A stretch of DNA of 64,000 nt from Obrimoposthia wandeli (taxonomy: Eukaryota), in NCBI GenBank assembly GCA_977020255.1, contig CDROCS010002069.1, positions 62,001-126,000 of the forward strand, in the 5' to 3' direction. The notes below the pieces were generated by a model. It saw only the letters and a list, made by a program, of their open reading frames with translations. It was not told where the DNA came from and did not search any database. This document shows, one piece after another, positions 3,880 to 64,000 of the stretch. A program made the position numbers and the translations under genes. Numbering within the stretch: position 1 is the stretch's first letter; every line of letters begins with the position of its first letter.

Positions 3880-4010
3880 TTTCAATTTCGTTTATAATAG
3901 GGGATTATTTGTTGATTGATGCTTGCTTATATACTATTTTCGAGCTAGTATTAAGCCAATCAGATTCATTCATTATTTAAACCAACCAGATTAATTTAAA
4001 ACAGAATAGT

Positions 4011-4520: not shown

Positions 4521-4556
4521 TTTTATAGCAGTAATTTTATTTGATATTGTTTATAT

Positions 4557-4934: not shown

Positions 4935-4963
4935 TTATATCTTCTTTATTGTTTTCATTCTGT

Positions 4964-6193
4964 TTATACTAGTACTGTTCCTCCCTTGGTAATTTGAACC
5001 TCAGAATCGAATACTCCATAGATTATAATATTAGTAGGATGTTCAAGTGCTTTTAAAAACTTGATTTCTACTTTCAAATTTCCCTGTTTAGGGATTTGAG
5101 CTTGATTAATATCGAAATCAGGAGAGAGAACAAATGTGAACAGTGTATACTTGTCCTTGAAATCAGTCATTGAAATTCCAATATTAGCATCCTTATCCAA
5201 ATGACCAAGATTTCTAATTAAAGATTGCACATAAGAAAACACATAATCATTATTTTCAAAGTTATTCGTATAAGATTCTTGATAATCAATATTTCATGCA
5301 AGTTTAATTGAACTCACATTCATGTGTCCAAATTGAGAAACCTCATTTTTAGACTCACCTCCATAGGTAGACGTGTTTTGGAAAGCAATTAAAACAAAGT
5401 TTGGAAGTTGCATATCACCAAAAATCTGATTCTTGTAATAAGATAGTGCCCCCGTAGGGATAGCGTGAGAAACAAGATTAGTTTTTCTAATAGGATAACA
5501 TGCATTTTGCTTCTCCAACCCTATTCAATGTGCAACAAGTACAGATGGTTCCACCTTTACTCTACGAACCAGCAGTTTTGCTTCCGTAATCTCAATTGCG
5601 GTTTTAATAGTATCGTCGCAAACAACACTAAAACCTACTGGATTTCTCTTCATTCGAATATGTGCACTTACACCGGGTAAAAGATACTTTGGTTGCTTAA
5701 AGAAATCCAAATGGAGACTCCCATAAAGTGACAATACTTTAGATTTCGCAATCGAAGCTGTTCTTCTTTTTTCATCATTGTCAAACCCAATTGCATCAAG
5801 ATTAATCAATTTCGTATCATTACCGTAATTCAACAATGTTTCAATCATTGCTTTATGACTGTAACTAGTATTATTTCCCTCAACTTTCACATTATTGAGA
5901 CTGAGAATCACATCCTTGAAAAGAGTATGCAACATGTAATTAGCTGATTTGATATCCATATCATCATCCAAATCACATCCACCTTCCTTTGTAACTTTCA
6001 ATTTAACGAGAAATAAACTATCATTCAAATCAAGATATTGAGTATTGGATCCATTAATATTGAATTCTAAATCCGGAGAAGATGTCCCGTTAACCGTATT
6101 TGTCGGAAATATTTCTTCAAAACTAGCACTATCAACCACAACCTGAGGTATAGGTTTATCGAATATACACAATTCAGTTTTAGCACAACTCAT
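4964..6193 (-). pseudogene. Major capsid protein (double jelly-roll), about 409 codons with two in-frame TGA
   Basis: ORFs 5525-6193, 5294-5518 and 4964-5242 lie in one frame separated only by TGA at 5525-5527 and 5294-5296. Polinton MCP-like motifs ELCIFDKP, YLDLNDS, FFKQPKYLLPGV and YTLFTFVLSPD. Confidence 0.9.
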
Positions 6194-6555
6194 TACTTAA
6201 AAATTGTTCCACCTAGTTTCAAACGTTTGTTTATACCCGATGCTTTAGATGTTTTCTTACGTTTATAACCACTTCCCTTTTGAGTTTTCTTTTTCAAAAA
6301 TTCAGCTAGACTTGGTGAAATTTCATTCACCTGATCCAAGGCTGCATCCTTTAGTGTGGGAAGAAATTTCTCATCACTAGACAAGTATTTTGATCCAACA
6401 TTAGCAATAAATTTCCCGAGTAGCTTGAGTAGTGGGAAAGCAAAGCGACCAAAAACCTTCATCCATCCTGATCCATACTGTTTTCCGGTAAAATAAGGCA
6501 AATCACCTCCTTGCATCGGTTTACTATATGCATCGATTATACTTGAATCAATCAT
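6193..6555 (-). CDS. Small basic putative virion core protein
   Basis: MQGGDLPYFTGKQYGSGW and QKGSG motifs, Lys-rich tail, position between penton and MCP. A diverged homolog lies at about 25760-27095. Confidence 0.75.
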   Translation of the reverse strand: MIDSSIIDAYSKPMQGGDLPYFTGKQYGSGWMKVFGRFAFPLLKLLGKFIANVGSKYLSSDEKFLPTLKDAALDQVNEISPSLAEFLKKKTQKGSGYKRKKTSKASGINKRLKLGGTIFK

Positions 6556-7574
6556 AATTTACGAAAATGAACCGTTAAACTTGTTTTAGCTCCGTAAGCA
6601 AATGTAATTAATCTTCCAGAATCATTACGTATATTAACTTCAATATTGTTTATAGAAGAAGAACTCACGGGAATATACATTGGATTTTCAATTGGAATAT
6701 GTATAACATCACCATACTTGTGCTTTTCCTGTTGAACCCAAATTGCTTTAATTAAGGGAAGTTTCCTTCTTCCTACGAATATTGGTTCGGTAATACTCGT
6801 GTAGATATAAATCTGATTATATGCATTAGTCATTTTAGGAATAATCTTTGCTTTGAAAACCTCATTTTTATTTTCAAATTCATTTTCATCAAAACCGATA
6901 ATTGAGGCTAATGATTTATCCAAGATGATTTTATCAATATTGGATTTCAATTTGAAATGAATCAATTTATTAACTAGTTTAAAGTTTTCAAATACATTTG
7001 GTAACACTGTTTTAAAATGTTTACACATACTTTTGCTATCAGCAAAAAGAAAATCATTGGGAACTGAATATATTTTCCTCTCGCGTTTAACGAATCTGTT
7101 TTTTATCTTGAATGTAATTATCGGATACTTGACATGATTATCCATAATTTGTGAAACTGCATGCTTACCTATTTCAACTTTAGGCGGAAATCCATATTGT
7201 TCTGCAACAATTTCATCATTAAAAACTATTTCAAAATTATCCCCTTTTCCCATAATTTGAATTCGATTCTCTTTATTTAAAAAGATTGTGAAATCATCGC
7301 CAGCCTTAATACGAGCCAAATCCATTTGACCCTTATCAAATAGTAAAGTCACATCAGTTACTTTATCAGCTTCACGTTGAGTAATATATTCAATCTCAGT
7401 TTCACTTTGAATAGATAGAGAAGAGTAATTGAAAGAAAATTCCGTAAGAGCAGCTTCCCAACCACCAGGTAAATTGATTGAGCTTTGATAATCAATACTA
7501 AAACTATTAGCAGTATTATTCGGTTGAGTTAATGGCGAACCATTACTTGGTAATACAACATACATAGAGTTCAT
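6552..7574 (-). CDS. Minor capsid protein (penton)
   Basis: N-terminal YVVLPSN..PNNTANSF..WEAALTEF and C-terminal IEVNIRNDSG..TVHFR. The ATG at 7574 overlaps the integrase stop (ATGA). Confidence 0.88.
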   Translation of the reverse strand: MNSMYVVLPSNGSPLTQPNNTANSFSIDYQSSINLPGGWEAALTEFSFNYSSLSIQSETEIEYITQREADKVTDVTLLFDKGQMDLARIKAGDDFTIFLNKENRIQIMGKGDNFEIVFNDEIVAEQYGFPPKVEIGKHAVSQIMDNHVKYPIITFKIKNRFVKRERKIYSVPNDFLFADSKSMCKHFKTVLPNVFENFKLVNKLIHFKLKSNIDKIILDKSLASIIGFDENEFENKNEVFKAKIIPKMTNAYNQIYIYTSITEPIFVGRRKLPLIKAIWVQQEKHKYGDVIHIPIENPMYIPVSSSSINNIEVNIRNDSGRLITFAYGAKTSLTVHFRKL

Positions 7575-8583
7575 TCTATTTGAGAAGCTAATATCCAACT
7601 AGGTTCAGTATATCCATGCCACTTAACATGATATTGTTTATGCTTTCCTCTACTTTTTGTCTCTAAAATTTCTTGGATTCTATATACATTTGGTTTCTCA
7701 GGCAAGACTTGTAATTCCTCATGATAAAATTTACCCGTGATTACATTATTGGTTTCATCCTCAATGAAATACATTACCGGCATACGTTTATTATCCATTT
7801 TAGTTATACGAAATACTTCATCGCTCCAATTCTCTTTGAAATTCTTTATAAAAGGAGTAGTACTAATTTGAGAAATACGTACATAATCACCAACTTTATA
7901 CTTGGGTTTCCGCGCAACTTGACTTTGGTTACGGCGTTGCCAAATTTCCATAGCATTCTCATCTGTAACATCAACGGGTCTCTTTCGGTCTAATGATTGT
8001 ATGCATGTATTATTTGAGGTAAAACAGTAACCCAGGACTTATTTCCCTGCTTTGTGAAATACCTTTTCAAACGATCTCTCAATGTTCGATTAAAACGTTC
8101 AACTAAAGCGGCTTTATATTGGGAAAATACTGAGTAATGATTAATATTATGTTTTTTCAATAGTGTTTCAACATGTTTATTATAAAACTCCTTTCCACTA
8201 TCCGTTTGGAAATTTCTTGGTTTTATTTCTTTAATCAAAAGCTTCATTGCGGCTAAAACATCGGTACCAGACTTAGACTTTAATGGAATAGCTCGTGCGA
8301 ATCTGCTAAAGACATCAACACAAGTTGAAATATATCGATATCCGTTGTTAATACTCGCATACGGAATCATTTCCATCAAATCTGCTTGCCATAAATCATT
8401 CGGGCCGCTCGTTTTGTATGATCTCGTTGGGAACCGACGTCTCATTGGTTTGTTTAAGCTGTAAGCTAATTGATTTCTCAACCACGCCTGAGTTTCCTGC
8501 TTTGTCTTCTTTGACTCTTTTGCTAATTTTGAAACCCCTGTGTAACCAACGGGATGACTTGGATCGAACCATATTTTCTCCAT
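7571..8583 (-). pseudogene. int: Retroviral-like DDE integrase with C-terminal chromodomain, frameshifted near 7990
   Basis: WQADL, FQTDSGKEF and VERFNRTL catalytic motifs. The frame jumps from YNH to DRKRPVDV, consistent with a small deletion. Chromodomain-like YHVKWHGY..PSWI. Confidence 0.93.
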
Positions 8584-8680
8584 TGCAGCAAGACGATTTG
8601 ATTTTTAAATTGAATTTAGGAATAGATGGAAATGATCCCATATATAAATTCATATTATTGATTCGAATTTATGTTTATAA

Positions 8681-9103
8681 TCATCGGTTCATTAGTCTAC
8701 TAGCAAGTGCACCAACTATTGAGCTAATAATTGGTACGAGAAATCCTAAAAATCCACCACTTTGCTTATAAAGCAACTTACGTTTACCGATTCGTTGTTT
8801 GGCATGAAACAAAGCAAGTAGAGGTTTCTTATGCCGATTCAGGTTAGCCTTGACAATTATTTTACCAGAAACTATTTTCTGTATCATATTAAGTAAATCA
8901 TCAATTACAAAAGTAGGGAATGATTTAAGAATAGCTGGGCGGCGAATAGCAGGTGCACGCATGAGAGAATTGAAATAGGCAATATTCCTAGATTTCTTAA
9001 CAACAGTTCTTTTCGATTTTTGAGCAACCATTTTCCTTGCACTTAAAACTGATTTAATCAATTTTTTAACTTCGGGTTTAACAGTTTCCTTTTTAAAATT
9101 CAT
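8681..9103 (-). CDS. Basic Polinton structural protein ending in a QSGG-FLGFLVP amphipathic segment
   Basis: Lys/Arg-rich 140-aa ORF. The QxGG motif followed by a hydrophobic helix resembles conserved Polinton structural ORFs. Confidence 0.7.
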   Translation of the reverse strand: MNFKKETVKPEVKKLIKSVLSARKMVAQKSKRTVVKKSRNIAYFNSLMRAPAIRRPAILKSFPTFVIDDLLNMIQKIVSGKIIVKANLNRHKKPLLALFHAKQRIGKRKLLYKQSGGFLGFLVPIISSIVGALASRLMNR

Positions 9104-9750
9104 CTTCTCAAAACTGGTTTCTTTGTTTGTTTATAGACGGTTATTCCCGATGGATTGAATACATCAGTTCTAACTCTAAAGTCATCGGGACAATCTTGAG
9201 TAAAATCAATAAAAATGTATCCATGAGGAATAGTAGTTGCATCTTGAAATGAATCAATTAAAAACTTTCTATTATTCGGGTAAGCTTGTCTTGAAACAAA
9301 ATCAACAACCGTCTGATCACGTGGATTCTTTAAGAGAACAAGGTAATGTACATTCAAATTACGAGTTCTATGGTTCCCTCCTTGATGAAATAGATTTTGT
9401 GTGATGAAAATAACAGTTACTTCCCGATGTCGTGCTATTTTAGTGAATAAATTATTGAAATCACTCTCTTTATTTGCTTCTTGATATAAATCATCAATAA
9501 CAATAACATCATGTCGTTGTAATCGCTCAGACCAATTATCATCGAATCCATTAATGACTTTTATATTTTTGATTTTCTTAAACTCTTTACTGGTTAAACC
9601 AGCTTCTCCATCTCCTCCCTGATGCCAGTATATTTTATTAAACTTAAAACTAAAGTATTTATTATTTTGCAGTAATTTACATACAAAATGTGTTTTCCCA
9701 CTACCACTAGGACCTACAATCTGAAAAACTGAATTATTTTTTAAGTTCAT
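9100..9750 (-). CDS. FtsK/A32-like genome packaging ATPase
   Basis: Walker A GPSGSGKT, Walker B VIVIDD, then ARH and ITQN motifs. Intact ORF. Confidence 0.95.
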   Translation of the reverse strand: MNLKNNSVFQIVGPSGSGKTHFVCKLLQNNKYFSFKFNKIYWHQGGDGEAGLTSKEFKKIKNIKVINGFDDNWSERLQRHDVIVIDDLYQEANKESDFNNLFTKIARHREVTVIFITQNLFHQGGNHRTRNLNVHYLVLLKNPRDQTVVDFVSRQAYPNNRKFLIDSFQDATTIPHGYIFIDFTQDCPDDFRVRTDVFNPSGITVYKQTKKPVLRR

Positions 9751-9810
9751 ATTAAAAATATTAGATTATCGGGATAATGTTTATAAAATAAAACTATTTA
9801 AAATATTTTA

Positions 9811-10077
9811 TTACGAAACATCCAGCAACAAACAATAAAAAAAACTCTTCTCGTAGAAAAAGCTCCTTTTCTCTTCTTTGTTTGCGAGTTTCTTCTGATT
9901 GTATCCCTGAATGAGAAGATTGACTGCCTTGTCGTGCACCATTCTTCTTACGTGCTCCTCCAGGGGTAGATTTGAGACATCAATGAGTTGCAGGACATCT
10001 GGTTCTATGACATTCTTCGAGATGAAGCTCTTCACCGCCTTGTCAACATCTTGCTTGAAATAGTTTGGAGTAGACAT
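9811..10077 (-). CDS. Hypothetical 88-aa protein
   Basis: ATG at 10077 is preceded by the GTATATAAGC box (10107-10116) also seen upstream of polB. Confidence 0.55.
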   Translation of the reverse strand: MSTPNYFKQDVDKAVKSFISKNVIEPDVLQLIDVSNLPLEEHVRRMVHDKAVNLLIQGYNQKKLANKEEKRSFFYEKSFFYCLLLDVS

Positions 10078-10144
10078 AATGATGATGAAGAAGTAAAAAG
10101 TAATCTGCTTATATACTATACATCTGAAATCTGATTGGTTAATA

Positions 10145-10250
10145 AATACACTGACTAATAAAGACACTAAAGACACTAACTAATAAAGACACTGACTAAT
10201 AAAGACACTGACTAATAAAGACACTGATTAATAAAAACACTGATTAAAGA
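10145..10250. repeat. Tandem repeat of about 16 bp (ACTAATAAAGACACTG), about 6 imperfect copies
   Basis: Directly visible. It lies between the phosphatase-like gene end and the next promoter. Confidence 0.85.
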
Positions 10251-10266
10251 TAAAGACGAATAAAAT

Positions 10267-11266
10267 TTACACATGATAACGATTAAAAATACGTATTTGA
10301 TGAAGCATAGCTTCATTAGGAGCAGCAATAGTCCGTTTAGCTTTAACAAGATTCGAAGCAGCAGTAACACCAATCGAATGAGATAAAAATGCAATAACAA
10401 TGCAAGCAGCATGTTAACTACCATAATGACCACATACTAAAATCTTACCACCATTTTCGATAGTTTCTTTAATTATATTATTAGTCTGTTTATAATACTT
10501 CATTATTGTTTCTCCTAATTTTGAGTTTACAAAGACAGAAGTATATTTTAATTTCTTATAAGATATTTTATCCAGTATAGATGTATTGATTACATGAGTG
10601 AAATTGGAGTTCAAAAGATTAGTTTCATCAAACCCATCTCGATAATTACCAATATATGATTGATTTACTAAAATCTCACTCATCGCTGTTTTGTTTAACT
10701 TTTCTACATTAAGTTGAGTAAATCTAGCACTAAACAAACAATCAAAAAGATGGGTCATGTGGTTCATTTCCATACTCGAAGCATGAGCTATTATGGGTTC
10801 CATAAAAGCCAAAGCATTTAAAAAATCTATCCGTCTCTTATCTTCAATAATTGGATCTATAATAATTTCTTCTTCTATCGTCACTTCATCAATAGTTTCT
10901 TCTCTTCTTATAACTGTTGTTGTTGTTGCTGGTGGTGATGATGTTGCTGGCGATGATGTTGCTTCTGGTGCTGAATTGATTTTCTCCAATTTATCAATTC
11001 CGAGTCAATTTAGTCTTATATATTAAACAAGGTTTGATTTCATTGGATCATCAGTTTCATCATATGATTTGATTGGAGTATTATTCAACCTTTCCATTGT
11101 ACTTAACATCTCATGTAAATGTAGTTGATGACGTAACCTAAACAGTTAAATAAACTACATATAAATATTACTCATGATTATTTTTCCTTATTAAAGCATT
11201 GAGAATAACTGAAGCAAGATCTTTTAATGCATCCTGAACCTCTTTACATTCAATAATTTCATCCAT
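10267..11266 (-). pseudogene. Dual-specificity-phosphatase-fold gene with a degenerate active site. Predicted exons 11172-11266 and 10267-11137, three in-frame stops
   Basis: Reading through the stops gives SEIL..SYIGNY..FTHVIN..GGKILVCGHYGS*HAACIVIAFL..VKAKR..APN..LHQI, matching the DSP pattern. A phase-2 intron at 11138-11171 joins the frames. Confidence 0.8.
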
Positions 11267-11307
11267 TTTATGATAAAGCAAATCAAATATTGTTTATAAC
11301 CCATGGA

Positions 11308-11379
11308 AAATCTATTTTAGACCACATTACAACTATTTGCAACTATTTGCAAGTAATGACATGTGATGTCTTTGTCTTT
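11308..11379. promoter_or_regulatory. Block of about 72 bp duplicated at 13047-13119, containing the TGCAA-N4-TTGCA palindrome
   Basis: Near-identical direct repeat. Each copy sits just upstream of a gene start. Regulatory function is inferred. Confidence 0.6.
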
Positions 11380-11937
11380 AAGATAAATCTATTTTTAGCA
11401 ACATTACGACTATTTGGTTGTTTAGGAAATAAATAACACAAGTGTGAAGATCTATATTAAACAAAATACATTCAATCAGATATTCATAATTTAAAGATTT
11501 AACACCGAGTATCATAATTTTCCCGCTAGCAAAAATGTTCACGCATAGGGGATTGTATTTGACGTATCGAAGTCCCGGGAAGATTTCTGGCTCGTAAACA
11601 GCTTCCAATCCCATACTCTTGCTCATCTTGTTTAGGTTTATTGATGTTTCTAGATTGCTGCTGAGACTGATTGATTGGATTCTTTCTATTTTTATATCAA
11701 AAGGAAGACTGCTTTCATCCAGCACTGTTTTGCAACCCATTATTCTGCATGTACCTAAATTATAATTATATATAAATGTAAAAATAAATTACCAGATTTG
11801 AAAATGATAATAGTGTAACCATCACACTTGAGTCGATACTGATGAGGCTTCGAAGTTCGAAATGGTAAGTGTTGAATGTTACTTACAACCATTCCGTTGT
11901 AATTAATATTCACTAATTTGATATTGTGAAGTAGCAT
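11378..11937 (-). CDS. Divergent TATA-binding-protein-fold protein, 173 aa. Predicted exons 11793-11937 and 11378-11754
   Basis: Removing the 38-nt GT-AG intron gives IIIFKSGTCRIMGCK (repeat 1) and YEPEIFPGLRY..VNIFASGKIMILGVKS (repeat 2) in one open frame. Confidence 0.85.
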
Positions 11938-12000
11938 TTATGATTATTATAAACTGATTTCTTCTATTTATACAATTTGAACATCTATTTTTAGATTTGC

Positions 12001-13002
12001 TTAATTGCCTATGCTATGAAATCTAATATTTCTTACTTGTCTAATAATAATTGTCTTGCAATATGGACATGTAATAAAACGATCTGAACATTTAATACAC
12101 GTGTTTAAGTGACCGCATGGTAAAAATGCCACGGAAATCGCATCGCTCATGCAAACAACACACTCGGGATTTGGTAAGAGGTACTCGAGATAATTTATAC
12201 GATGTTTTGGTTCAGATTTTATTTCTAAAAATCTTAAATCCGTTATAAACTCATATATAGAATCATATTTGTTACCGAATGTTTTAAACCTATTAACTAA
12301 AACGGCTTTGATTCTATCATGGCTATAATCACGTTTCAGCAAAACTATTTGACGAGTTTCCATCTGAGCATCAATTTCATCATTACTAATATGATATTCA
12401 ACAATACATCCGTTCTTGATTCCCATACTAGATGCTTTACAATCTCGAGTATGAAAGATTCTTTCGGGCATAGTATCAATAAGGTCAAGTCGGGGTACTG
12501 CTTTCCGACAGAAACAACATCGATAAGAATCATTCCAAATATATACATTATCGAAAATCGATAATGTAGGTATTTCAATATCATTAGAATAATTATTGCG
12601 CACAATAGCTACTTTATCCATTGGAGTTGTATCAAAATCAATTTGGGTGGTGTTGGAATCAATTATTGGTACGTTTGAAACATTCATTTTCAAAACAAAC
12701 GGGCATCTTGGGAAAAATAGCTGATGTCGCTTCATTGGTTTCAGATAGTACTCCCATCCCGATATTCCTCCCTGACAGTAAATACACTTTACATTATCTT
12801 TCGAATCATCGTGCTTGTAAAATCCTGCTTTTGCTAAAGCTTTCTTATCGGCTAAACCAGTAAACTTTGCTTGTAACGATTCTAATCTTCTTTCTTCATA
12901 TATCATATTTTCATTTATTCTTGAAATATTATCAAAACGCCGTCGTCTAATAGTGAGTTCTCCGTTTTCTGAAACATAATGTGCAATAAATTTAGTAGTC
13001 AT
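12001..13002 (-). CDS. iap: Inhibitor of apoptosis protein: BIR, degenerate BIR-like, UBA-like and C-terminal RING
   Basis: RLESL..AKAGFY..VKCIYC..GW..H..FPRCPF (BIR) and CVVC..FLPCGH..CIKC..CPYC (RING). Intact 333-aa ORF. Confidence 0.93.
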   Translation of the reverse strand: MTTKFIAHYVSENGELTIRRRRFDNISRINENMIYEERRLESLQAKFTGLADKKALAKAGFYKHDDSKDNVKCIYCQGGISGWEYYLKPMKRHQLFFPRCPFVLKMNVSNVPIIDSNTTQIDFDTTPMDKVAIVRNNYSNDIEIPTLSIFDNVYIWNDSYRCCFCRKAVPRLDLIDTMPERIFHTRDCKASSMGIKNGCIVEYHISNDEIDAQMETRQIVLLKRDYSHDRIKAVLVNRFKTFGNKYDSIYEFITDLRFLEIKSEPKHRINYLEYLLPNPECVVCMSDAISVAFLPCGHLNTCIKCSDRFITCPYCKTIIIRQVRNIRFHSIGN

Positions 13003-13046
13003 AACAAAATTGAATGATGAAATTGTCTAGCTTATATAGTAAGTGA

Positions 13047-14304: not shown

Positions 14305-15108
14305 ACGTCTTTGTTAGACACTCACACACATATATATATATATATATATGTATAAGAATAAATGTTACTATTGATTACATAAAGATATATATACTTGTAA
14401 TACTTGTTACATAAAGATGCAAGTATTTGCAATATAGATGCGTGACTGTCTTTGTTAAATATAGGAACGTTTAAACATTATTATCAAATTATATAATACT
14501 TTATTTTATAAGTAGATAATTTAAATAAATAATAAAACACACACACGATATGTATTTTGTTGAATTGGTGTTAATACAGTCTTTAGATAAAAAGATATAT
14601 AGATTTAAAGTATGTTACTAAAAATAGAATATTTTTGACCTCACCATGACCTTAAGTTGTCCTCATAACGTCATGACCTTAACTTGACCTTAACTTGCCT
14701 TGACCTCATGAGGTCATGACCTTAACTTGACCTTAACTTGCCTTGACCTCATGAGGTCATGACCTACATCTTGTCCTCATCGTGACCTTAAGTTGTCCTC
14801 ATGAATTTAAATAAAAAATCATGTGTACTCGGGAGAAATTTGACCTACATCTGTCATAAAAAATTTGAGTTCAAAAATTTTCGCGCTAATTTCAAAAATT
14901 TTGCGCAAATTTCAAAATTTTCATGGAAATTTCAAACATTTTTAAAAAATTTCGCGCAAATTTCAAAAATTTTGACCTATATTTCAAATTTTTCGCGGAA
15001 ATTTCAAAATTTGACCTAAATTTTTTGTCCTCATCAAAAAATTTGACGTACATTTTTGACTTGTCCTCAGGGGGGGGCTTTGTTCCAGAAGTGCCACATC
15101 TACCTACT
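14305..15108. repeat. Right terminal inverted repeat region of copy A
   Basis: The outer ~48 bp and about 14305-14805 are reverse complements of copy B 57743-57790 and about 57998-58620. The intervening part is unique and AT-rich. Confidence 0.9.
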
Positions 15109-15960
15109 GTGTGTAAAATACTTTGGGATGAAGGAGTGGATGTTGATTGTCCATCTCAATTTTGTGTTTGGCAAACAGCGATAAGAAAACAGGATGAAAT
15201 TTAAAAAAAACATAAAAGAAATAATTAATAGTGGTGAACAAATTTGCTTACACTTCGATAGAAAAAGATTAAATAAAGAATTGTTGGATTTTTGTTTAGT
15301 TAGTTTCTCAAAAACCATACGATTATGAGATTTTTTATATTACAAAATTGTAAGGTTGATGCAATCACAATTGCTATTGGTAAACTGATATGTGTGTTTT
15401 ATACGGGAATGTCGATAAATATAATCATTTGTGACACGACTAATATTAATTAATATATGTTAACATTCTTGATCACGTATTAAGATTAATTGTGAACATT
15501 TTAATAGCAACAGCTTCTGTATCAACAAATAGGAATAATCCCTTTGAAGAAGAACTGCTAAAAATTATGATAGCTTGGTACAAAATTATATTACCAATTC
15601 AAATCAATCACATATTAATAATCCTGGCTAATGTGCTGGTATGAAATAATTATATTGGTTGTGTTCAGCTTTATGATATCAAAAAAAAATTGCCCAAATA
15701 TGAATCAAGAAAATTTTCCATAACTACATCAAGCCACATGGTATTCTAGGGCAATATGTGCAATACTTGTCTACTTTTAAATGAAAGTCTAAAACTTTGT
15801 AAAGTTTGTAAGACAATATCTAGCGAATTGACAAGCATATGGTTTAGTAATCAAAATTTTGTTGAAGTGGTTGAAAATTCATTGATAAGTGTCATAAATC
15901 ATTACCAAAAAACAATGATTTAAAATAAATTACAAGTATATATAAGACCAAATCAACTTG
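15109..15960 (+). mobile_element. Decayed DNA-transposase-like remnant into which copy A is inserted
   Basis: Broken frames CPSQFCVW..ICLHFDRKR and HQATWYSRAICAIL resemble the LHxDGK and ARWxSRA motifs of an invertebrate transposase family. Confidence 0.45.
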
Positions 15961-22135: not shown

Positions 22136-23410
22136 TATGTTATAATAAAGGTGCTCATGGGCAATAAAAAGTTAATGGATGTAGGTGTAGATTCAAACAT
22201 TGAACATATTTTAAAATCAAAAGTGTCTCAATGCAGGTAGACTAATTTTGTGCAAAAGTGCAGTTTAAAAAAAGTCAACAAATAAACTAAAAGTTAGTTA
22301 ATTCAACATATGGCTTTACTGTTTAACAATAACTTTGTAACTGAGATTGGTAAAGATTGCTAATTATATTGAGTTAAATAAATGGATTGGCTCTAGTTAG
22401 AATAACGATGTTAGATTTGTTTTAATCTAGATTTATCTTTCGTGGCGCGCATACATTCTTTCACATAGATCTCTTCAACTCTCACATTCCATTGTTAACA
22501 TACAAAACAGTGATAACATTTGCTTCTTGTATAGCGTGTTGACCATCCTAAAAAGAAATATAATTACTCTGTACAGAGAACGTTCAAGTAAACACACCCC
22601 TTTTCAAACGATTTGTGGCAGCATGGAATATATTTCCCCGTTAAAGTAACTGCGATATCTAGTTTTGAACACATGAATAATTTGTGTATTAATGTATTCA
22701 GATTTATTATCGATATCCGAGAAAATGTAACAGAATAGCCAAAATAACGGGACTGCGGTCAATTTAATTTTGCTTGAGCAAACAATAAATTCCACTATGC
22801 TGCAATTCCCAATTTATATGATTTCTAAATTTAGATAATGGAGCCTTACCGGTCATGAAAAGGTGTAAGTGGTGTTACAGATGTGTTAGGTTTGAGAATT
22901 AAGAAATTTAAATATTTTAGTCGATTAAATACTAAAATAAAAATCCTTGAAAGCAAGGTTGAAAATTAAATTAAATATTAATTTTAGTTTTAGAATTGAA
23001 ATTAGTGGAATTTAGGGTAAAAATTAGGAGGACCACGAAGGTCGTGTATAATGTGAAATGTATAAAAGTTAAATTAATTAACCCAAAAGGCGAACATTAA
23101 GCATTAATTAAGAAAAGGAAGTTAATTAGTAACGTCAATCAAGAGACGTCAATCAGGAAAGGTAAGCACATTTTAAGTGCAATAAGGCTAATCAATTTCA
23201 GATTATTCCAGAAGAATTCCAGTTCGCCTATTTTTCAGCTGTCGATTGATTGACAGACTGGACACTATATAAGTCAGACCAGAACGCACATAACACAGAC
23301 TAGAAAAAGAAAAGGGAACGAAGGAAATCGATATCTCCGACCGACAATCCACCACGAATCGGTAAGTAGTGATCGAAAGTAGATTAAAATTAATTTAGAT
23401 TTTTAGTCCT

Positions 23411-23790
23411 CCGTTCGAAGTAAAAGTTATTGAAGTAATCCGTTCGAAGTAAAAGTTATTGAAGTAATCCGTTCGAAGTAAAAGTTATTGAAGTAATCCG
23501 TTCAAAGCAAAAGTTATTGAAGTAATCCGTTCGAAACAAAAGTTATTGAAGTAATCCGTTCGAAGTAAAAGTTAGTTATTGAAGTAATCCGTTCGAAGTA
23601 AAGGTTATTGAAGTAATCCGTTCGAAGTAAAAGTTATTAAAGTAATCCGTTCGAAGTAAAAGTTATTGAAGTAATCCGTTCAAAGCAAAAGTTATTGAAG
23701 TAATCCGTTCGAAGTAAAAGTTATTGAAGTAATCCGTTCAAAGCAAAAGTTATTGAAGTAATCCGTTCAAAGCAAAAGTTATTGAAGTAA
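23411..23790. repeat. 29-bp tandem repeat, about 13 copies, inside LTR B
   Basis: Unit CCGTTCGAAGTAAAAGTTATTGAAGTAAT is directly visible. Confidence 0.92.
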
Positions 23791-23909
23791 TTGAAGTGAA
23801 AATCTCCGTACAAATCAATTTATTCGAAGACAATTCCGAAAAGACCCTACGGACCCTGCATCGGACATCCCACTAGTCGCAGTAATTGGTAAGCCGATCG
23901 ACTAGAGCA

Positions 23910-24345
23910 TTCATTGCCCCTAGTTGGCAATTAGGACACCTTCATTACCCCTTGTTGGTAATTCTAAATTTTGACCTAGTAAACAAATTCATTGTCCCTA
24001 GCTGGCAATTAGGATTTCCGACTCTTTAACTAAATCATTGCCCCTAGTTGGTAATTAAGATCAGCTATTTATTCATTGTCCCCAGCGACAATTAGGAATC
24101 ATACCAGACTTTTTGCCTGTAAGAATCATTGTCCCTAGCTGACAATTCGGTTCATTCATTGTCCCTAGTTGACAATTCGGACAAATACTCATTGTCCCTA
24201 GTTGACAATTCGGTAAGACTCATTGTCCCTAGCTGACAATTCGGCTCGTTCATTGTCCATAGTTGACAATTAGGAGTAAGTTTTTCATTGTCATCTTGAC
24301 AATTAGGTTTTTAGGAGACCCATTGTTCACAGTGGACAATTCGGG
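23910..24345. repeat. About 12 interspaced palindromic repeats (CATTGTCCCTAGTTGACAATT) inside LTR B
   Basis: The conserved ATTGTC-N7-GACAAT unit is separated by unique spacers of about 8-35 bp. Confidence 0.85.
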
Positions 24346-49100: not shown

Positions 49101-52100
49101 CTCATTTCACCTTTTGTTCCTTATATAAAGTTTTCTTTTGTGGATACTTTTTATATTGTTTACGCTTTTTCCACTTGTTCATGCCCCTTCTAGATATGAC
49201 TAAACCAAATTCGTCAATTATCGATCTTGATGTTACTTTCTTGTGGTTTTTATGACATTTATAAATATATATTACAATTCTTGTTGCCATTCGTTTACTT
49301 ATTATTGATTTTGAACCACGTTTCTTCGGATTTATCTTTAAATTATTATGTTGTATACCGATCCAATAGAAATATTTTACTGGAAAGGTTTTTTCTGAAT
49401 TTATAGATGATGCAATCAGAGATTATGGGTTAAAAAGGGATAATTTTCGTCTATTGCTTACTGATTCTGTTAATTATATGAAGAATTGCGGCGATTGAAT
49501 GAAAGTAATTTACTCAAATATGAAACACATCAATTGCTTTATACACATTCTCCACAATTGTGTGTTAAAAATTAAGTCTAAATACACCAAACTTGATGGT
49601 CTGATTGGAGCAATGAAAATGTTAGTCCATAAAAATCCAACTAGAAAGCAAATGTTTTCCTCAATAGGAACAATTCCACAGCCAATAATCACGAGATTTG
49701 GCACCTGGTTGCTGGCTGCTCTGTTTTATGCTGAAAATTTTGAAGACATCAAGGAGGTGGTAGAAGAGATGATAGGCGATGGTGTACTGTTTACCAACGC
49801 ACAAAGGTCAATTGCCGTAGAGGGTTTAAGAGAAGAACTTATAGAAGTTCATCGAAAATATGGACATCTAGCATCATTGATATACGATACCATTTCAGCA
49901 ACATTTTCAATCAATGATGCCAAAAGACTTGCATCAGATATTCAGTTCTCTGAAGATGATTTGAATTTGAAAAAATATATTCTGACTAAAATGAATCGTT
50001 TTGATTATAATTACATCAATGAAGACAAAAATTTAAACATCAGTATCGCATCAGAACTTCTGTCAGCCCCCTCAACAACAATAGCAGTTGAAAGATCCTT
50101 CTCTATTCTTTGAAAAATTATTACAAAGGATAGGAGATTTTCAGCCAGTTCGGTTAAACAGTACATGATGCTGTACTACAATACATCATTAAACTAGTGT
50201 TGAATGGCTTATTTTTGTATAGATTTTTATTTTGTATAGTTTATTTAAATAACATCATAACTTTTTTGCAAAGATATACAGAAAAGTGTGTATATTTCGC
50301 ATAAAAATGCATATTTTTCTGCATATTTTTGGAAAAAAATGTGCATATTTCGCATAAAAATATGCGCATAATATTGGTTGCCCTACTTATCATACATAAT
50401 AAATATCAAAATAAAATTAATATTTCAAAAATTGTTCTAACCTTTAAATTTGAAATAACAAAAAATCAAATATATTATTTAAACAAATGAGTTTCTTAAT
50501 AAAATAATATTAATCGAAATGAGATTCATATATTAATGTTAAATTATGCACATTTTTGAGATGTTACTTCTATAATTAATTTTTTTGAAAATTAAGAATT
50601 TTCTAAAAATTAGTTCCACCGCTATTGTTGTTTTGACACTTTAATTTTTCTGCACATAAGATTTTCTTTTTGATTACCATTGTAGAGTCTACCCAAATAT
50701 GGTATTGTTGGGGTTTCTATATGAAACTTTTCTAATATAGATCCTCAGGCGGAGGGCCCCAACGTGAGTTCTATAGAAGCAGGACTTGTATATGTTTGTT
50801 GCCTACTTAAGTTATGCTTGCTTATCTCAATTTGTATCTGAAGGTTTATTATGGTTAGGTGAAATGTGTGAAGAGCTGTATATATGGCTATTGCAAAATT
50901 CCCTTAGTGTGGTGTTGTATGTAGGGTAGTTAACAACTACTTGCTAGTAAGGGTAGGGTTCGATATAACACAGTTTAATGTAGGAAATCTTTATTTCTAA
51001 GCACACGACTTACGTTTTAACACGTTCTAAAACAGCAATACTAATTCTAGTTACTTTGCACAAATCTCTAACAATTGGGGGTGATCCACGTATTAATTTT
51101 ATTTAAGGGTTGTTTGGTTACTAGAGTCCTTGCTCTAAAATAAGGGCTGATTTTAGAGAGCTGCTTGCTCTAAAAATAGGGAATTGATTTTAGTGAGCTG
51201 GTTGTTCTAAAATTAGGGGATTGATTTTAGAGAGCTGTTTGCTCTAAAAATAGGGAATTGATTTAGGGAGCTGTTTGCTCTAAAATAGGGAATTGATTCT
51301 GTCTTTTTTGACAATAACAATATAAATATTATAAGATACTTTATGTCCTTTGAGACAATAACAAAATCGATGTTATGAGACAACTTATGTCTGTTAAAAT
51401 TATTGAACATTTAATTAATTACTAAATTTAATTTTAAAGTAGAATATCTATAATTTATGATGTTGAAATAACAGTACTTAACAAATTAGTTAGAATTTAT
51501 AATTTAAATATAATTTCACAAACAAGATATTTATATTTTTCATTTATCAGAGTAATATGAATTGATTTCAAGAATTAATATAATCCTATCATATCTAAAA
51601 AAGGAAATTTTAAGCATAGGAAATATTTATAATGAAATATATAATTTAAGTTTATATATTTATACGTGTACCAAAGGTTTTTGATACATAGTACATTGTG
51701 TCTTCAGTAATATTTAGTTTTGGTACGAAAATGGCGGAACAAATCATATTCCCCAAGGCGCTCTTTATTCTACCATTCCCATCTCAACACTCTATTCGAC
51801 AACAAATTCCTCGAAAACACATAAAATCAGTCAAAATAAGAAGAATAGTTGAGGGTAAGAATACTATTAAAATGATTAAAATGACAACGTGGCAATTTAA
51901 TAGTTGGCTCTTATTCGGTTAACTCACCTTCTGTTGTCGACGCTATTCTGGAGTCGACTGGAATCTTGCTTCAGTCGTCTCCGTTCGTTCCTCAATTTAA
52001 CACGAATTCCTCTTCTTAATTTCTCTTCTTACTTTGATTCTTCTTCAAATTTCTGTCGTTGTTTATTCACTACTGAATCCTTGTCTCCAATCAGCCGCCT

Positions 52101-55134: not shown

Positions 55135-57069
55135 CCTCGCCCTACCGAGCCGTTGCAATAATTATGTGCTTTCGATATATATATATAACTTTTAGTCCCT
55201 GGAGTGTTTTGTAAATATATTTTGTCGAACACGTTGTATGTAATTTTCTACAACTTTATACAAAATGATATAAATTCTTGATGATATAGATAAACAAAGT
55301 ATAGAAAAAAACTGTTTTAAATATAAAATAACTTTGGTGTCGTTGCTGGAACGAAGGATCAAATATGTGCTATTTTCCCGTCATTCCCTGAATAACAATT
55401 TATAATATTAATATAATCCTAAAGTAATCCGTTATTTTAACAGTGTCAAAAGTTATTTTATATTTAAACAGGTTTCTTATCTTATCTACTATAAATTCTC
55501 AAAAACACAAAAATTACTCAAATAAATCAGTGTATCTTGAAAACATCGAGATCATGCATACTGTAAATCTTACTATGATGAAAGTGAACAAAATATTAAA
55601 ACCCTAGCTTCAAAAAGTTCTGGAGAAAAAAAATATTGTTTTAAAATATCTTCACCAATTTAATAAGCAGACCGGATAAAATATTTAACGTGCTTTTAGT
55701 CATGAAAAATATAATCTGAAAGTAAATTTATAGATTATATGTAACACAATTCAATAAATTTAGTTAAATAATCGAATTAAAACTATATATTAAATCGGAT
55801 TCAGAAACAAATTGTATTATTTTATACAAATGCATGAGCATGTTAGTATAATAATATTATATAAAGTATATCATCAAATATATAATCAGATAATAAATCT
55901 AAATATTAATTATATTTTATTTACACCATATTATAAATTTACTGATTAAATTTGCTATTTACAATTAATGATCGCCAATTTAACTGTAATGACCAAAATC
56001 TATACTTATTCTTACTAATCCATCTCCTTTTATAAAAACATTTTAAAGTAACTTGAGATGTAAAAATTGTAAGAGGCTGGTTAACTGATGCAAAATGTGA
56101 CTAGTTAACACTAATAATTTCTTCAATTTCCTAACAATTCAAATAATTTTGATGTCTGAAAATAGATTGTTTTATAGAAATTCCTTTAGTTTTTGAGCAA
56201 GTAGCATTTTGATTTTAATAAAACCTTATCATAATCATCTTGAAATGTTCCAGCTGTAAGATTTTCTGAATACAAGAGACGTGTTTCAGGATAATTACTT
56301 GTATCTAAATACCCGTCCTTAATCGTTTCTATACGAAATGTATTTTTATTGATATTTACTCTCTAAAGGAAAAAAGAATCTGTATATATAGCTTCAATTC
56401 GAATAACACAATTAAACTGAAATGTATTACATAATGTTTTCTATCATTGCGTGTTCAAAGTAATTTAGGAATTTTTGAGTTTGATGGACACATCTTATGT
56501 GGTCCAATAGGTAAATCATCAACTTTATTATATGCACGATCCGGAATATGTATATCTATGTATATGTTTAAAAGTTACATAAGGTTCTAAAATACTTCCA
56601 AAATTATTTATATCTATATAGACCTCTATCGAACTTCCATTAATGTATATTAACAAAAGTCATACATACTCTAATATGGGACTCAAAACGACTATACATT
56701 ATACGACATGATTTCTGAGGGTCAAATTCATAAGTAGATCATTATGTGTTATAGTACGTCTGTCTTAGACCGATTTTGGTTAAATGTATGTGTTTGTTTA
56801 AACGCATTAATTTTTATCCACGCAAATTTGTTATATTGCACGAGATTTAAAAGTCAAAGTCCCATTTTAATTACTTTTTAAAATGTTGTTTTGTTTTACT
56901 GCATCAATTTCAGTGAGCGGGAATTCAAAAATATGTGTGTATGTTCTGATATAAGTGTACTATAATAGAATTGATTTAAAACCTACTATACTATATAAAA
57001 TATGAGTTCTGTTTTAATACATCAAAGTAATTTAAAAACTAATAGCGCATAATATGAAAATGTTTTAAA

Positions 57070-57693: not shown

Positions 57694-57742
57694 CTGAAAA
57701 TTAAAATTAAAGAAAGAAAGATTAAATAATACTTTCCACGTG

Positions 57743-58464
57743 AGTAGGTAGATGTAGCACTTCTGGAACAAAGCCCCCCCTGAGGACAAGTTCAGGTCAA
57801 GTTGAGGACAAAATTTTTTAAGGTCAAGTTGAGGTCACGGTGAGGTCAAAATGTAGGTCATGACCTCATGAGGTCATGGGAAAACCTAGGTCATGACCTC
57901 ATGAGGTCATGACCCCCCTATGCTCAGGACAAAGACATTTTGAGCATACCCCCGCCCCCTTGAGCACAGTTTAAGATCACGATGAGGACATGACCTCATG
58001 AGGACAACTGAAGGTCACGATGAGGACAACATGTAGGTCATGATCTCATGAGGTCAAGTCAAGTTAAGGTCAATGTACTTTAAGGTCAACTTAAGGTCAT
58101 GACGTCATGAGGACAATGTACTTTAAGGTCAACTTAAGGTCATGACGTCATGAGGACAATGTACTTTAAGGTCACGGTGAGGTCAAAAAGATTCTATTTT
58201 TAGTAACATTCTTTAAATCTATATATCTTTTTATCTAAAGGTGGTATTAACACCAATTCACCAAAAGACATCTCGTGTGTGTGTGTGTGTTTTATAATTT
58301 ATTTAAATTAAATTATCTTCTTATAAAATAAAGTATTATATAATTTGATAATCATGTTTAAACGTTCCTCTATCTATCTAACAAAGACAGTCACGTACTG
58401 CATCTATATTGCAAATACTTGCATCTTTATGTAATCAATAGTAATAAGTACTACATTTATTCTT

Positions 58465-58511
<47 letters not shown>

Positions 58512-58852: not shown

Positions 58853-61800
58853 TTATACAACCTCGTCCGGGTATAAAAAGTGACCATAGGCGACTGAACA
58901 GTTTTTCTCCACCCACTTGCGCTTATCATCACTACTGCTTAAGGCAATTTTACTTAACCTTACAGTAAAAAGTTTATGATTTAGCGAGCTTATACGTTGT
59001 TGTTGTACACGCTCGCTAACGCCACTCTCATATACGGCTAAGTAATTAGAGTGCCTAATACTCGTCTGTCGGAGACTAATACCTTTCGCTCTCATCTGAG
59101 ATTCACCTTCTGTAGTCTCTAGGCTATATGATTTTGGTCGTAGAAAAATCCCTTGCCTATAACTAAATAATCCCTTACTCTCATCTTTAAATTTTTCTAT
59201 CGCTGTATTAAGCGTCGTATAAAGCGGATGGGTTTTTGGAAATTTCGAGGTATCCAACAGTCCATCAGCAATCATAGCAGGTAACAGTGATTCTTGAACA
59301 TTTACATTATTACACTTCAAGAAAAAGCTATCAGTGTCACCTGCTATAATTCTAATGTCGCAGTTAAATTGAACTCGATATTTCTCCAACTGCTCATATT
59401 GTAGCTCATACATACGAAGTTTGCTTAAATCTAATACCGCCTGGCCCATATAACTAGGACGATCCAAAACAATATTTTCCTTATCCAGTAAAACTGCAAT
59501 AAGGACCGTATCGATTTCGATTGTCCTACGAAAGTGGGCTTTACTGCAATAGGTAACCAGCTTCTGTGGAGTATTACAAATCCGGAGGTTAATTCTTTTC
59601 ATCAGATTCTCAATGAGTTTTCCAAATAAAGAATTCACCTTCAGTTTATAATAATCCCGCTCGAAATCTGTTGTAGCCGCAGCTCTTTTGAGAGAATTAT
59701 CCTCAATATATTTTGAAAAAACATTAGTTTGTTCAAACCGTATTGCTCTGTATACAAAATCTACCTTAGCACCAAGTCTAACGTACATTTGTAGCAATCT
59801 AGAATGCACAACATAATGTTTCTTAGGGTAATGTGTTAATAACAATTTTTCAGTCTTACACCCTGGTGGACGCTGTTTAATTGGAGCAAGGGGAAGATCG
59901 TCGAATTTATTATGAAGCTCAAAGGGAATGGATAAATCTATTTCCAATAAATGAGCGAAGCGACTACAGGATAAATCTACTGATTTTAACCTGGAGATAA
60001 TATTCCCCAACTCTAACCGATCAGTCACCCAGGAAATGTTACCACAAGGTAAAAACTGGGACATAGCTCACCCGTACAAATTGTTTACATCAATGTACAA
60101 AAGTTCTGTACCATTGATGGCGTCCACGCAGTGTTCATTAACAAATGTCATACCCCCGCAAATCCCAGACCGGAAGAGTCGGTACATTTCTGGATCCTGT
60201 ATTAGCTCGACTCGCACAACGGGAGCAGAAGAAGAAGCCGGACGAAGCAGGGATTTGAAGCACTCGCGAAAGTCAGTCCTGGAAATAAAATCATTAATTA
60301 AAATAATTGTGAAAATCATTGTGAAAATCATTACTTTGAAAATCATCTATCTAACAAAGACAGTCACGTACTGCATCTATATTGCAAATAATTGCATCTT
60401 TATGTAATCAATAGTAACAAGTACTACATTTATTCTTATATATGTATATATATATATGTGTGTTAGTGTCTAAAATTAGAAAAAATAGTAAAATACAAAC
60501 CAGGGATGGAGAAGAAATTGAGTGGCTCCAATCCATCGTCAGCAATGGCCTTGGTTCGGAATGCTGTAAACACGTCTGCTAGAAGGTAGACGTCCATCTT
60601 CATATAGACCAGCATATAGTCCCAGAGCGTTGAGCAGCCGCTCTGAGTCCAGACTATCTTCGCCATCTCATATTGTGCTGGTTTGATCTTTTCATCCCAC
60701 TTTGGCGGTAAGCTGGTGATTGCACGAAGAGCAGTCTCTGATACTACCATATCGTATGGGAAGATTCCCTTGGCGCTCACCAGATGTTGCAGGAAGACCG
60801 AATGTGTAAGAGGAGTCACACCCAGGTTTTCCACAAGTTTTTCTAAGCTGCTGTTCAAAAATTGAAGGGAATCGATGAAACGTATACAGACTCCTTCAAT
60901 ATACACCATCATAGCCTGGAATTTCTCTGTTGATTGAGGTATAACAGATACATTCCAGTCAGGAAACTTGCATAGTGAGTGCTTCAATATGTGATGCATG
61001 TCATAACCCATCAGATTATGAAAAATGACGGGAAAAGATCGATTAATTCTCCTTGATAAGTTGCATTTTGCATGTGCAGCTCCCAGGTATTCGCCAGTCA
61101 TGTGATCGTGATCTCGAACTTTGTTTGTGAGTTTCTTCTTACACAGGTAACAGATTCTCCAATATTGGAAAATTCAACACGCACCCCGAATTGAACTTTA
61201 CAAGTCGCAAACTTGCTGACTGTGTCCCTTAAGCTAGTCAAAAGTGATACAGGAACTTGTAAATCGATGAGATTGTCATTAGAAACATCTAATGACAATG
61301 TTTCAATCGTGCCCCGAAGACTAGTCTTACGCTTAACAGCATTAACCCTGGACAACTTCGCAACAGAGCTACCTGAAGTGGGCTTAACACTTCTCTTGTG
61401 GGTAGATGCTGGTAACGGCGCGAGGATCATACCAACTGGAGGAGGCATAACCATTGTAATTGGTGCAGCAGATGATGGTGAAGCAACTGGAGGAGGCATA
61501 ACTGGAAGCATTGTAATTGGTGCAGCAGATGGTGCAGCAACTGGAACAGCAGCAGCAATTGGAGTAGATACTGGAACAGCAGAAATTGGGGCAGCAATTG
61601 GCGAAGCAACAACAACTGGACCAGCAACCCGATCTTGAGAAATAGTAGCAGATCTATTCTGAAAGATGGCCTTCTTGCCACGTTGCTGGAAATGGCGAAG
61701 ATGGACACGATGACGCGTCACAAACTCTACCCAATCAATCTCCTCCGCGGAGAGACATACTGGACATACGTAGAATTGTTGTCCGTTGAACTTCTGTCCA

Positions 61801-62597: not shown

Positions 62598-62975
62598 CTA
62601 TTGTTTATGCTTTAACCAAAGCAGACAGAGTTGTCCACATGACTGTGTTAAAATATTTAGATAATGTTTCTTACTAAAATGTACTTTCTTTCCAGAGTCA
62701 AGTACTGTAGATACTAATTTAGAAGGGTAATATATCCCAAAGGGGTCAAAAACAAAGATTTCATTTTCTTTAACATGTATTGCAATCCAATGTTCACCAC
62801 GCAAATTAGATGAATGTGTATTGATTACATATCCACCTAAACGAGTCAAAGAGGGGATATGATCAAGACTGTAGACTCCATTGAAACGCGAACCGAGTAG
62901 TTTTCTTCCGCTTTTTGTTATCTCGTCCGAACTAAAATATATATTAATTAATAAATTCAAACTGACTTACTTCAT
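62598..62975 (-). CDS. Adenain-like protease, copy B. Exons 62971-62975 and 62598-62931
   Basis: Translation is identical to copy A, with the same 39-nt intron. Confidence 0.92.
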
Positions 62976-63004
62976 TTATATCTTCTTTATTGTTTTCATT
63001 CTGT

Positions 63005-64000
63005 TTATACTAGTACTGTTCCTCCCTTGGTAATTTGAACCTCAGAATCGAATACTCCATAGATTATAATATTAGTAGGATGTTCAAGTGCTTTTAAAAA
63101 CTTGATTTCTACTTTCAAATTTCCCTGTTTAGGGATTTGAGCTTGATTAATATCGAAATCAGGAGAGAGAACAAATGTGAACAGTGTATACTTGTCCTTG
63201 AAATCAGTCATTGAAATTCCAATATTAGCATCCTTATCCAAATGACCAAGATTTCTAATTAAAGATTGCACATAAGAAAACACATAATCATTATTTTCAA
63301 AGTTATTCGTATAAGATTCTTGATAATCAATATTTCATGCAAGTTTAATTGAACTCACATTCATGTGTCCAAATTGAGAAACCTCATTTTTAGACTCACC
63401 TCCATAGGTAGACGTGTTTTGGAAAGCAATTAAAACAAAGTTTGGAAGTTGCATATCACCAAAAATCTGATTCTTGTAATAAGATAGTGCCCCCGTAGGG
63501 ATAGCGTGAGAAACAAGATTAGTTTTTCTAATAGGATAACATGCATTTTGCTTCTCCAACCCTATTCAATGTGCAACAAGTACAGATGGTTCCACCTTTA
63601 CTCTACGAACCAGCAGTTTTGCTTCCGTAATCTCAATTGCGGTTTTAATAGTATCGTCGCAAACAACACTAAAACCTACTGGATTTCTCTTCATTCGAAT
63701 ATGTGCACTTACACCGGGTAAAAGATACTTTGGTTGCTTAAAGAAATCCAAATGGAGACTCCCATAAAGTGACAATACTTTAGATTTCGCAATCGAAGCT
63801 GTTCTTCTTTTTTCATCATTGTCAAACCCAATTGCATCAAGATTAATCAATTTCGTATCATTACCGTAATTCAGTAATGTTTCAATCATTGCTTTATGGG
63901 TGTAACTAGTATTATTTCCCTCAACTTTCACATTATTGAGACTGAGAATCACATCCTTGAAAAGAGTATGCAACATGTAATTAGCTGATTTGATATCCAT
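63005..64000 (-). pseudogene. Major capsid protein, copy B (5' part outside the window), with the same two TGA
   Basis: TGA at 63566-63568 and 63335-63337 correspond to those in copy A. Confidence 0.9.

Follow-up and report, generated by a model that had tools for sequence, protein, structure and literature searches.

Arrays of nuclear-receptor-type half-sites in the terminal repeats of a greatly expanded Polinton family in Obrimoposthia wandeli

The left terminal inverted repeat (TIR) of a Polinton in the O. wandeli genome contains a dense, shuffling array of AGGTCA half-sites whose forward hexamer, by a statistical comparison of copies, appears to be held by purifying selection. We lean towards the view that host nuclear receptors use the array as an enhancer, through which Pol II would be made to transcribe the element or to leave it silent. 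The window, the 64-kb stretch of DNA that was analysed, represents positions 62001-126000 of contig C2069 in a 1.35-Gb genome (G000).

The array and the elements that carry it

An earlier note on this DNA had drawn attention to about 18 AGGTCA hexamers in about 400 bp. Positions 57780-58190 contain exactly 18 (57794 to 58180), together with eight AGGACA and three TGACCT, and the steps between adjacent half-sites are chiefly 11 or 16 bp. Every pair of hexamers named earlier at a spacing of 11 bp is present, as are the IR0 palindrome AGGTCATGACCT at 57855 and 57888 and the CRE-type TGACGTCA at 58100 and 58143, the latter occurring nowhere else in the window. The enrichment over shuffled sequence that the note proposed to examine is large: AGGTCA and TGACCT together are observed 21 times, compared with 0.63 on average, and never more than 4, in 2000 dinucleotide shuffles of 57780-58190, and TGACGTCA, observed twice, has a mean of 0.013 and a maximum of 1, a significance that is overstated because the array grows by unit duplication with a 43-bp period. 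Consequently, it is the comparison of copies that carries weight. The array is no assembly artefact, since the stretch is found at very high depth in public contigs from the same organism. The features of the array, and of the two Polinton copies (A and B) that extend into the window, are as follows (position, strand, description).

1-13026, minus: gene body of copy A
14636-14799, minus: array of half-sites within copy A's right TIR, the run of minus-strand genes lying downstream of it
14870-15010, no strand: alternative outer block at the right end of copy A, with TTTCGCGC-like motifs
15061-15108, minus: right terminus of copy A, its first 48 bp equal to the left terminus
15109-15114, plus: 6-bp target-site duplication of copy A
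57737-57742, plus: 6-bp target-site duplication of copy B, repeated after 73376
57743-57782, plus: terminus of copy B, beginning AGTAGGTAGATGT, with flanks that vary between copies
57743-58476, plus: imperfect left TIR of copy B, 76% identical to the right TIR
57783-57931, plus: outer block of AGG(T/A)CA half-sites, reading inward, at spacings of 11, 16, 12 and 17
57855-57909, no strand: two IR0 (57855, 57888) overlapping two ER4 (57861, 57894), varying between copies, the reverse half-site not spared
57974-58185, plus: inner half-site block with 11- and 16-bp steps and a local 43-bp period
58100-58107, no strand: CRE-type TGACGTCA, a one-base allele of the TGACCTCA unit
58143-58150, no strand: second TGACGTCA
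58853-61173, minus: protein-primed PolB of copy B in pieces (PF03175), 3' end toward the array, with an in-frame TGA at 60068-60070
60279-60500, minus: GT-AG intron-like insert in PolB of copy B
62598-64000, minus: pieces of the adenain-like protease and major capsid genes of copy B, recognized through matching frames of copy A, with TGA at 63335 and 63566

The earlier placement of the array in Polinton terminal repeats is correct, the repeat in question being the left TIR of copy B. This copy extends from 57743 to 73376 (15,634 bp), with its right end beyond the window, and is bounded by a perfect 6-bp target duplication, CACGTG. Copy A occupies window coordinates -1185 to 15108 (16,294 bp) and has the perfect 6-bp duplication GTGTGT. 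Taking the window with its neighbouring stretches, both copies are complete and in the same orientation, and the 43 kb separating 15108 and 57743 is host DNA. An "inverted equivalent" had been noted at 14635-14805. An array does exist there, with ten TGACCT, three TGTCCT, two AGGTCA, two IR0 and zero TGACGTCA at 14636-14799, but it belongs to the right end of copy A and is not the partner end of the element at 57743. The two arrays as the ends of one element are ruled out, the partner of 57743 lying at 73376.

In copy B the TIRs align over 734 bp at 76% identity, and an extra matching stretch reaches approximately 58679; in copy A the first 48 bp are identical and an inner 332 bp match at 87%. 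The block at 14870-15010 in copy A is AT-rich, and repeated TTTCGCGC-like words, which we take to be E2F-type, occupy the place of the outer receptor block. The outer module may therefore differ between the left and right TIR of one element.

The element is a Polinton. Matches to PF03175 (PolB), PF00665 (integrase) and Pox_A32 (ATPase) are over the cut-off, and Peptidase_C5 is below it (E=0.0027). The capsid frames have no Pfam match; an atlas feature search gave clusters at 0.98, and in some of them 11% of members carry PF21738, which we treat as a lead. The 6-bp target duplication is perfect in 16 of 20 elements having both ends. Copy A encodes PolB, the protease, pieces of the major capsid protein, a putative minor capsid protein, an rve-chromo integrase, the ATPase, a DSP phosphatase, a TBP-like protein and an IAP. 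The accessory genes among these are all on the minus strand: the dual-specificity phosphatase at 10414-11004, the TBP-like gene at 11378-11788 and the BIR-RING IAP at 12001-13026. A TBP-like protein is also found in families 2 and 4 (see below), where it is 44-53% identical.

PolB is interrupted by a GT-AG intron at a conserved place in copy A (1104-1413, 310 bp), copy B (60279-60500, 222 bp) and two diverged copies (L344 and L147; 93 and 139 bp), which suggests that the element is transcribed by host Pol II. In copies A and B the intron holds a copy of the inner-TIR repeat unit. Copies A and B also have in common three in-frame TGA stops in PolB and the major capsid gene (892-894, 5294-5296 and 5525-5527 in A; 60068-60070, 63335-63337 and 63566-63568 in B). 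Other copies keep sense codons at these positions (13 of 13, 2 of 2 and 4 of 4, respectively), so that A and B represent a defective sublineage. This sublineage has nonetheless spread.

Variation among copies of the array

The copy comparison included 68 termini from 56 elements. Four are those of A and B, and 36 came from 60 stretches fetched by integrase position, after 14 without a terminus and 10 without an inner anchor were left out. The remaining 28 are other TIR matches (29, less one near-duplicate) and were thus picked by likeness to the copy B TIR. The number of half-sites per terminus ranges from 2 to 33 (median 23), and steps of 11 bp (534) and 16 bp (450) make up most of the 1421 spacings. 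DR5 is present in 67 of the 68 termini, CRE in 60, IR0 in 55, ER4 in 54, E2F-like motifs in 19, DR4 in two and DR1 in none. The comparison shows the block to be a shuffling array of units that is built and varied by unit duplication.

Singleton variants, confined to one element, were read as post-insertion decay, and variants in at least three elements as marks of multiplying lineages. Leaving aside the T/A position, forward half-sites have 47 singletons and one shared variant, compared with 36 and 16 in the spacers and 49 and 21 at the remaining TIR positions. In all 60 subsamples, each of 40 elements, the ratio of shared to singleton variants was lower for the forward half-site than for the spacer. 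The p-values, 1e-4 (Fisher) for forward half-site against spacer and 0.001-0.18 for a pooled-hexamer test in 18 settings, some of them on termini not chosen for TIR likeness, are optimistic, since the contexts depend on one another and some spacer variants counted as shared distinguish types of unit. The hexamer comes in just two types, versus 27 upstream and 29 downstream pentamer types. Statistically, this sparing of the forward hexamer (1 versus 16 shared variants) is the mark of purifying selection in copies still multiplying.

A neutral minisatellite, produced by slippage and fold-back in TIR replication, would be consistent with the wide variation in copy number and unit order, the 43-bp period and the palindromic TCATGA words that are plentiful in the array. 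We consider it very unlikely, given that hexamer and spacer have equal singleton rates yet differ in shared variants as 1 to 16, and that two hexamer types stand against 27-29 spacer types.

The reverse half-site, with seven singletons and four shared variants (p=0.73 versus spacer), varies as the spacer does, and IR0/ER4 was rejected as the selected unit. IR0 is lacking in 13 of the 68 termini, which weakens the earlier emphasis on this palindrome. The role proposed for the CRE is likewise weakened: TGACGTCA and TGACCTCA are alleles of a single-base polymorphism, one carried by 46 and the other by 49 elements, and TGACGTCA is missing from 8 of the 68 termini. The spacer-like reverse half-site and the one-base CRE polymorphism together identify the forward hexamer, rather than the palindromes, as the selected unit. 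DR5 is nearly universal in the termini, but it is not the sole spacing; 16 bp is nearly as common, and family 4 has DR0 and DR4. Spacings of 11 and 16 bp exclude uniform phasing on one face of the helix, and with 727 same-face and 588 opposite-face spacings of 1421 the alternative of a helically phased array fails.

This absence of one-face phasing also bears on the possibility that the array serves an element-encoded protein (integrase, terminal, zinc-finger or TBP-like) in pairing, packaging or autoregulation, its likeness to AGGTCA arising by chance. DNA transposons often have subterminal arrays that their own proteins bind, several element ORFs are without a family, and selection on the hexamer is silent on the binder. 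No nuclear-receptor-type domain was found in the element ORFs scanned, however, the family 4 array is one-ended, and several neighbouring modules separately match host-factor sites. We judge this explanation unlikely.

Polinton expansion and sister families

The terminus of family 1, represented by copies A and B, has 5,223 exact occurrences genome-wide (control 0), and a wider Polinton end pattern has 49,732 (control 7,301). The genome has undergone an extreme Polinton expansion. Approximately 42,000 Polinton-type ends lie above control, in at least three autonomous families, and short derivatives that are not autonomous, ~170-200 bp and 1.6-2.7 kb in length, are numerous (e.g. L311, L325/L326 and G000:C8:71719-74387). 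Perfect DR5 (AGGTCA-N5-AGGTCA) occurs 26,459 times genome-wide versus 209 for a reversed control. As 5,223 termini with a mean of 4.4 DR5 would supply ~23,000 of these, family 1 ends probably account for most genomic perfect DR5. Family 1 also has many open integrases, with 118 scored matches at 95-100% identity. The integrase search revealed no relatives outside family 1, every match being from the same family; sister families were located through Pfam and terminus patterns.

Family 4 elements are ~17 kb long, with an integrase 60-67% identical and a PolB C-part 54-57% identical to those of family 1. Their array contains 9-10 AGGTCA half-sites at spacings of 11, 16, 14, 6, 10 and 23, DR0 and DR4 included, and begins 260-540 bp inside one end, pointing outward. 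The terminus was seen in 26 of 30 loci, three of them tandem duplicates, and both ends with matching target duplications in six of seven elements examined. At the far end AGGTCA is absent from 1 kb in six of six elements. The array end lies upstream of the terminal ORF and PolB module, and between array and genes are what we take to be CCAAT-like repeats and a TATA-like stretch. Nine other family-4-type termini are without the array. In some copies TGACTCA and TTTCGCGC-like arrays adjoin it. This one-ended, reversed array upstream of replication genes, beside AP-1/E2F-like motifs, points to an enhancer rather than an origin.

The contrary proposal is an auxiliary origin, in which array-bound host factors would assist the terminal-protein/PolB complex in initiating replication, much as NFI and Oct-1 act at the ITRs of adenovirus. 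The adenovirus ITR belongs to a protein-primed linear genome and contains host-factor sites for NFI, NFIII, Sp1 and ATF (PMC5717082), and baculovirus hrs are enhancers as well as origins (PMC13513840). At either end of family 1 elements the array reads inward, with its first half-site ~40 bp from the terminus, and its presence at both ends is what would be expected of an origin element. A fixed place and orientation at both termini is, however, found only loosely and only in family 1, where the array may hold anything between 2 and 33 half-sites and its outer block is replaceable, while the family 4 array is one-ended (6/6), reversed and variably placed 260-540 bp from the terminus. Adenovirus ITR sites, unlike those described here, are single, fixed and beside the core origin, and nuclear-receptor sites are not named among them in the available part of PMC5717082. 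By this placement test the array is not an adenovirus-type origin; the origin-enhancer idea of the earlier note fits poorly, and an auxiliary role in replication seems improbable.

Modules neighbouring the half-site arrays comprise TGACTCA, TGACGTCA, TTACGTAA/TGACGTAA and TTTCGCGC-like arrays. Four to five TGACTCA (AP-1-type) words are joined to a receptor array in two terminus types (the L024 array end; G000:C10:70484-70680; L325). The presence of the TGACTCA module on both family-1-type and family-4 termini shows module exchange. Family 1 and family 4 arrays also have 14-15-bp words in common, and because of these words and the AP-1 module, the agreement between the two families may reflect module exchange and not independent conservation.

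Family 2 elements are ~12.3 kb, with a PolB C-part 53% identical and long open PolB frames, up to ~1,250 aa, and their arrays are of a different kind. AGG(T/A)CA is absent from five of six elements. Instead, GGGTCA occurs within GGGTCAAGTG, 3-7 per end versus shuffle means of 0.5-1.0, although GGGTCAAGTG can also be read as another factor's site, and the ends carry TGACGTAA/TTACGTAA words. The AGGTCA motif is therefore not universal in co-resident Polintons, and conservation in related TIRs, a check named in the earlier note, gave a divided result, with recurrence in family 4 and absence from most of family 2.

Likeness to some factor site is not rare, given that 22 of 220 background tandem arrays match one of 34 factor-site motifs. 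At least three NR, AP-1, CRE, PAR or E2F motifs occur in only 2 of 220 other tandem arrays, and both of these proved to be family-2 Polinton ends. Among 80 metagenomic integrase loci, mostly fragments without ends, none has at least four RGGWCA per 400 bp. In viral contigs, a 22-base pattern had 0 matches, and none of 12 PolB candidates was confirmed.

Host receptors and the enhancer reading

The host genome has 57 zf-C4 matches, of which 30 loci were read. The best PDB matches are TR for L041, RXR for L047 and, weakly, ER/ERR for the half-domain L059; others are presumably COUP-TF-, HNF4-, NR4A-, NR5A- and two-DBD-like, as judged by sequence motifs. The proposed link to nuclear receptors is upheld in that the host encodes receptors with AGGTCA-type P-boxes. 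TG or TA precedes 619 of 788 half-sites (T-R-AGGTCA), and most of the remainder follow an AT-rich run and T, which we assume to resemble ROR/Rev-erb sites. The extended word TRAGGTCACGS is found in 55 of the 68 termini and is the core of the TRANSFAC T3R consensus (PMC9145723). AGGTCA itself is a consensus element in vertebrates and invertebrates (PMC12856210), and the TRalpha and RXR1 of schistosomes accept the half-site, DR0-DR5 and Pal0 in gel shifts, with no rigid demand on spacing (PMC2045677). What appears to be a host gene with two tandem nuclear-receptor DBDs was also seen (L053/L057, G000:C609), and a receptor of this kind is a sign that the host is a protostome (PMC1810520). A two-DBD receptor is disfavoured as the binder; the schistosome protein bound no AGGTCA repeats in the gel shifts of PMC1810520.

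In the enhancer reading that we prefer, unit duplication and shuffling build and vary the array, and changes to the forward hexamer arise as often as spacer changes but are seldom shared, as purifying selection would leave them. The binder would be a host receptor with an EGCKG/EGCKS-type P-box that probably reads 5'-extended single half-sites or tolerant direct repeats, not one strict spacing, and TR-, RXR-, COUP-TF- and NR4A-like proteins are candidates. Receptors could be joined by bZIP and E2F-type factors at the neighbouring modules, and their occupancy would decide in which cells or stages Pol II transcribes the element. In family 1, the block is copied to both ends within the TIR, and the copy at 57780-58190, downstream of PolB, would act at a distance.

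A more specific proposal, from the earlier note, is a ligand- or cAMP-responsive switch timing excision and replication to host development. In its favour are the nearly universal DR5 (67 of 68 termini), the common CRE (60 of 68) and the TR- and RXR-like DBDs of the host. Most invertebrate receptors, however, are orphans; no clear RAR-like DBD was recognized in the 30 of 57 zf-C4 loci, spacing is unspecific (11 and 16 bp, with DR0 and DR4 in family 4), IR0 is not spared, and a link between array and excision is absent from the data in hand. A precedent exists in the HCMV major immediate-early enhancer, which combines two DR5 with five CREs and is inducible by retinoic acid (PMC7690695). We nevertheless regard such a switch as unlikely. 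From the earlier interpretation as a whole there remain the TIRs, the spared hexamer with its recurrence in family 4, and the host receptors; IR0, the CRE, DR5 as the only spacing and the origin are weakened, and phasing fails.

The selected array can be likened to the viral enhancer design known from CMV and baculoviruses. The HCMV enhancer, which controls a latent DNA virus, resembles it in having short repeated units, AGGTCA direct repeats (two DR5 and one DR1), CREs and AP-1 sites (PMC7690695). It differs from the array described here, which has a median of 23 half-sites and is located in integrated invertebrate Polinton termini. Baculovirus hrs, which belong to a DNA virus of invertebrates, are likewise repeat arrays of variable copy number that contain CRE and TRE motifs, but they are interspersed palindromes, served by viral IE1, with no receptor half-site basis in the available text of PMC13513840. 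The Alu-borne DR2 expansion (PMC1785376) is a parallel case, in which most of a genome's perfect response elements with a given spacing come from a mobile element; the Alu DR2s, however, arose post-insertion via CpG deamination, whereas the Polinton sites are kept in a multiplying element.

The element agrees with the animal Polinton/Maverick (PMC8097293) in its length of ~16 kb, TIRs of several hundred bp, 6-bp duplication and AG-type end, and in a gene set of pPolB, integrase, ATPase, protease and capsid-like genes. It departs from that account in its imperfect modular TIRs packed with receptor half-sites, the PolB intron, the extra TBP-like, IAP and DSP genes and the thousands of copies; no motif arrays of this kind are described in the available part of PMC8097293. 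A search of titles and abstracts, with supplements and most subscription papers outside its scope, found no published report of receptor arrays in Polinton ends, and PMC11414722, in its available part, has just putative factor sites in repeats, including a C. elegans Polinton TIR.

Particles of animal Polintons have not been seen (PMC8097293). On the question of how these elements are switched on, a selected host-receptor array supplies a definite control element that is open to experiment, together with candidate host factors. A bolder proposal, which we consider doubtful, is that animal Polintons carry exchangeable nuclear-receptor/bZIP/E2F enhancer modules, which in this host would form a receptor-gated, possibly ligand-gated switch deciding when the integrated element is expressed, and that the ~26,000 perfect DR5 spread by the expansion could titrate or rewire the host receptor network. 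If true, this would be a first handle on the activation of endogenous Polintoviruses.

Several further arrangements were observed in the genome and the window. Three family-4 ends at G000:C3:34994, 68665 and 102346 have a 33.7-kb period and identical flanks, representing a tandem duplication or an assembly repeat. Host-side tandem arrays at 23410-23791, 24119-24308 and 51129-51298 (29-, 30/94- and 37-bp periods) are unrelated to the half-site array, and 56600-56860 looks by eye like the inner part of another small AGTAG-ended element (L008). At G000:C1435:303831-322666, a family-2 element is nested in another terminal-repeat element, the ends of which have AGGTCA/GGGTCA-rich 99-bp repeats.
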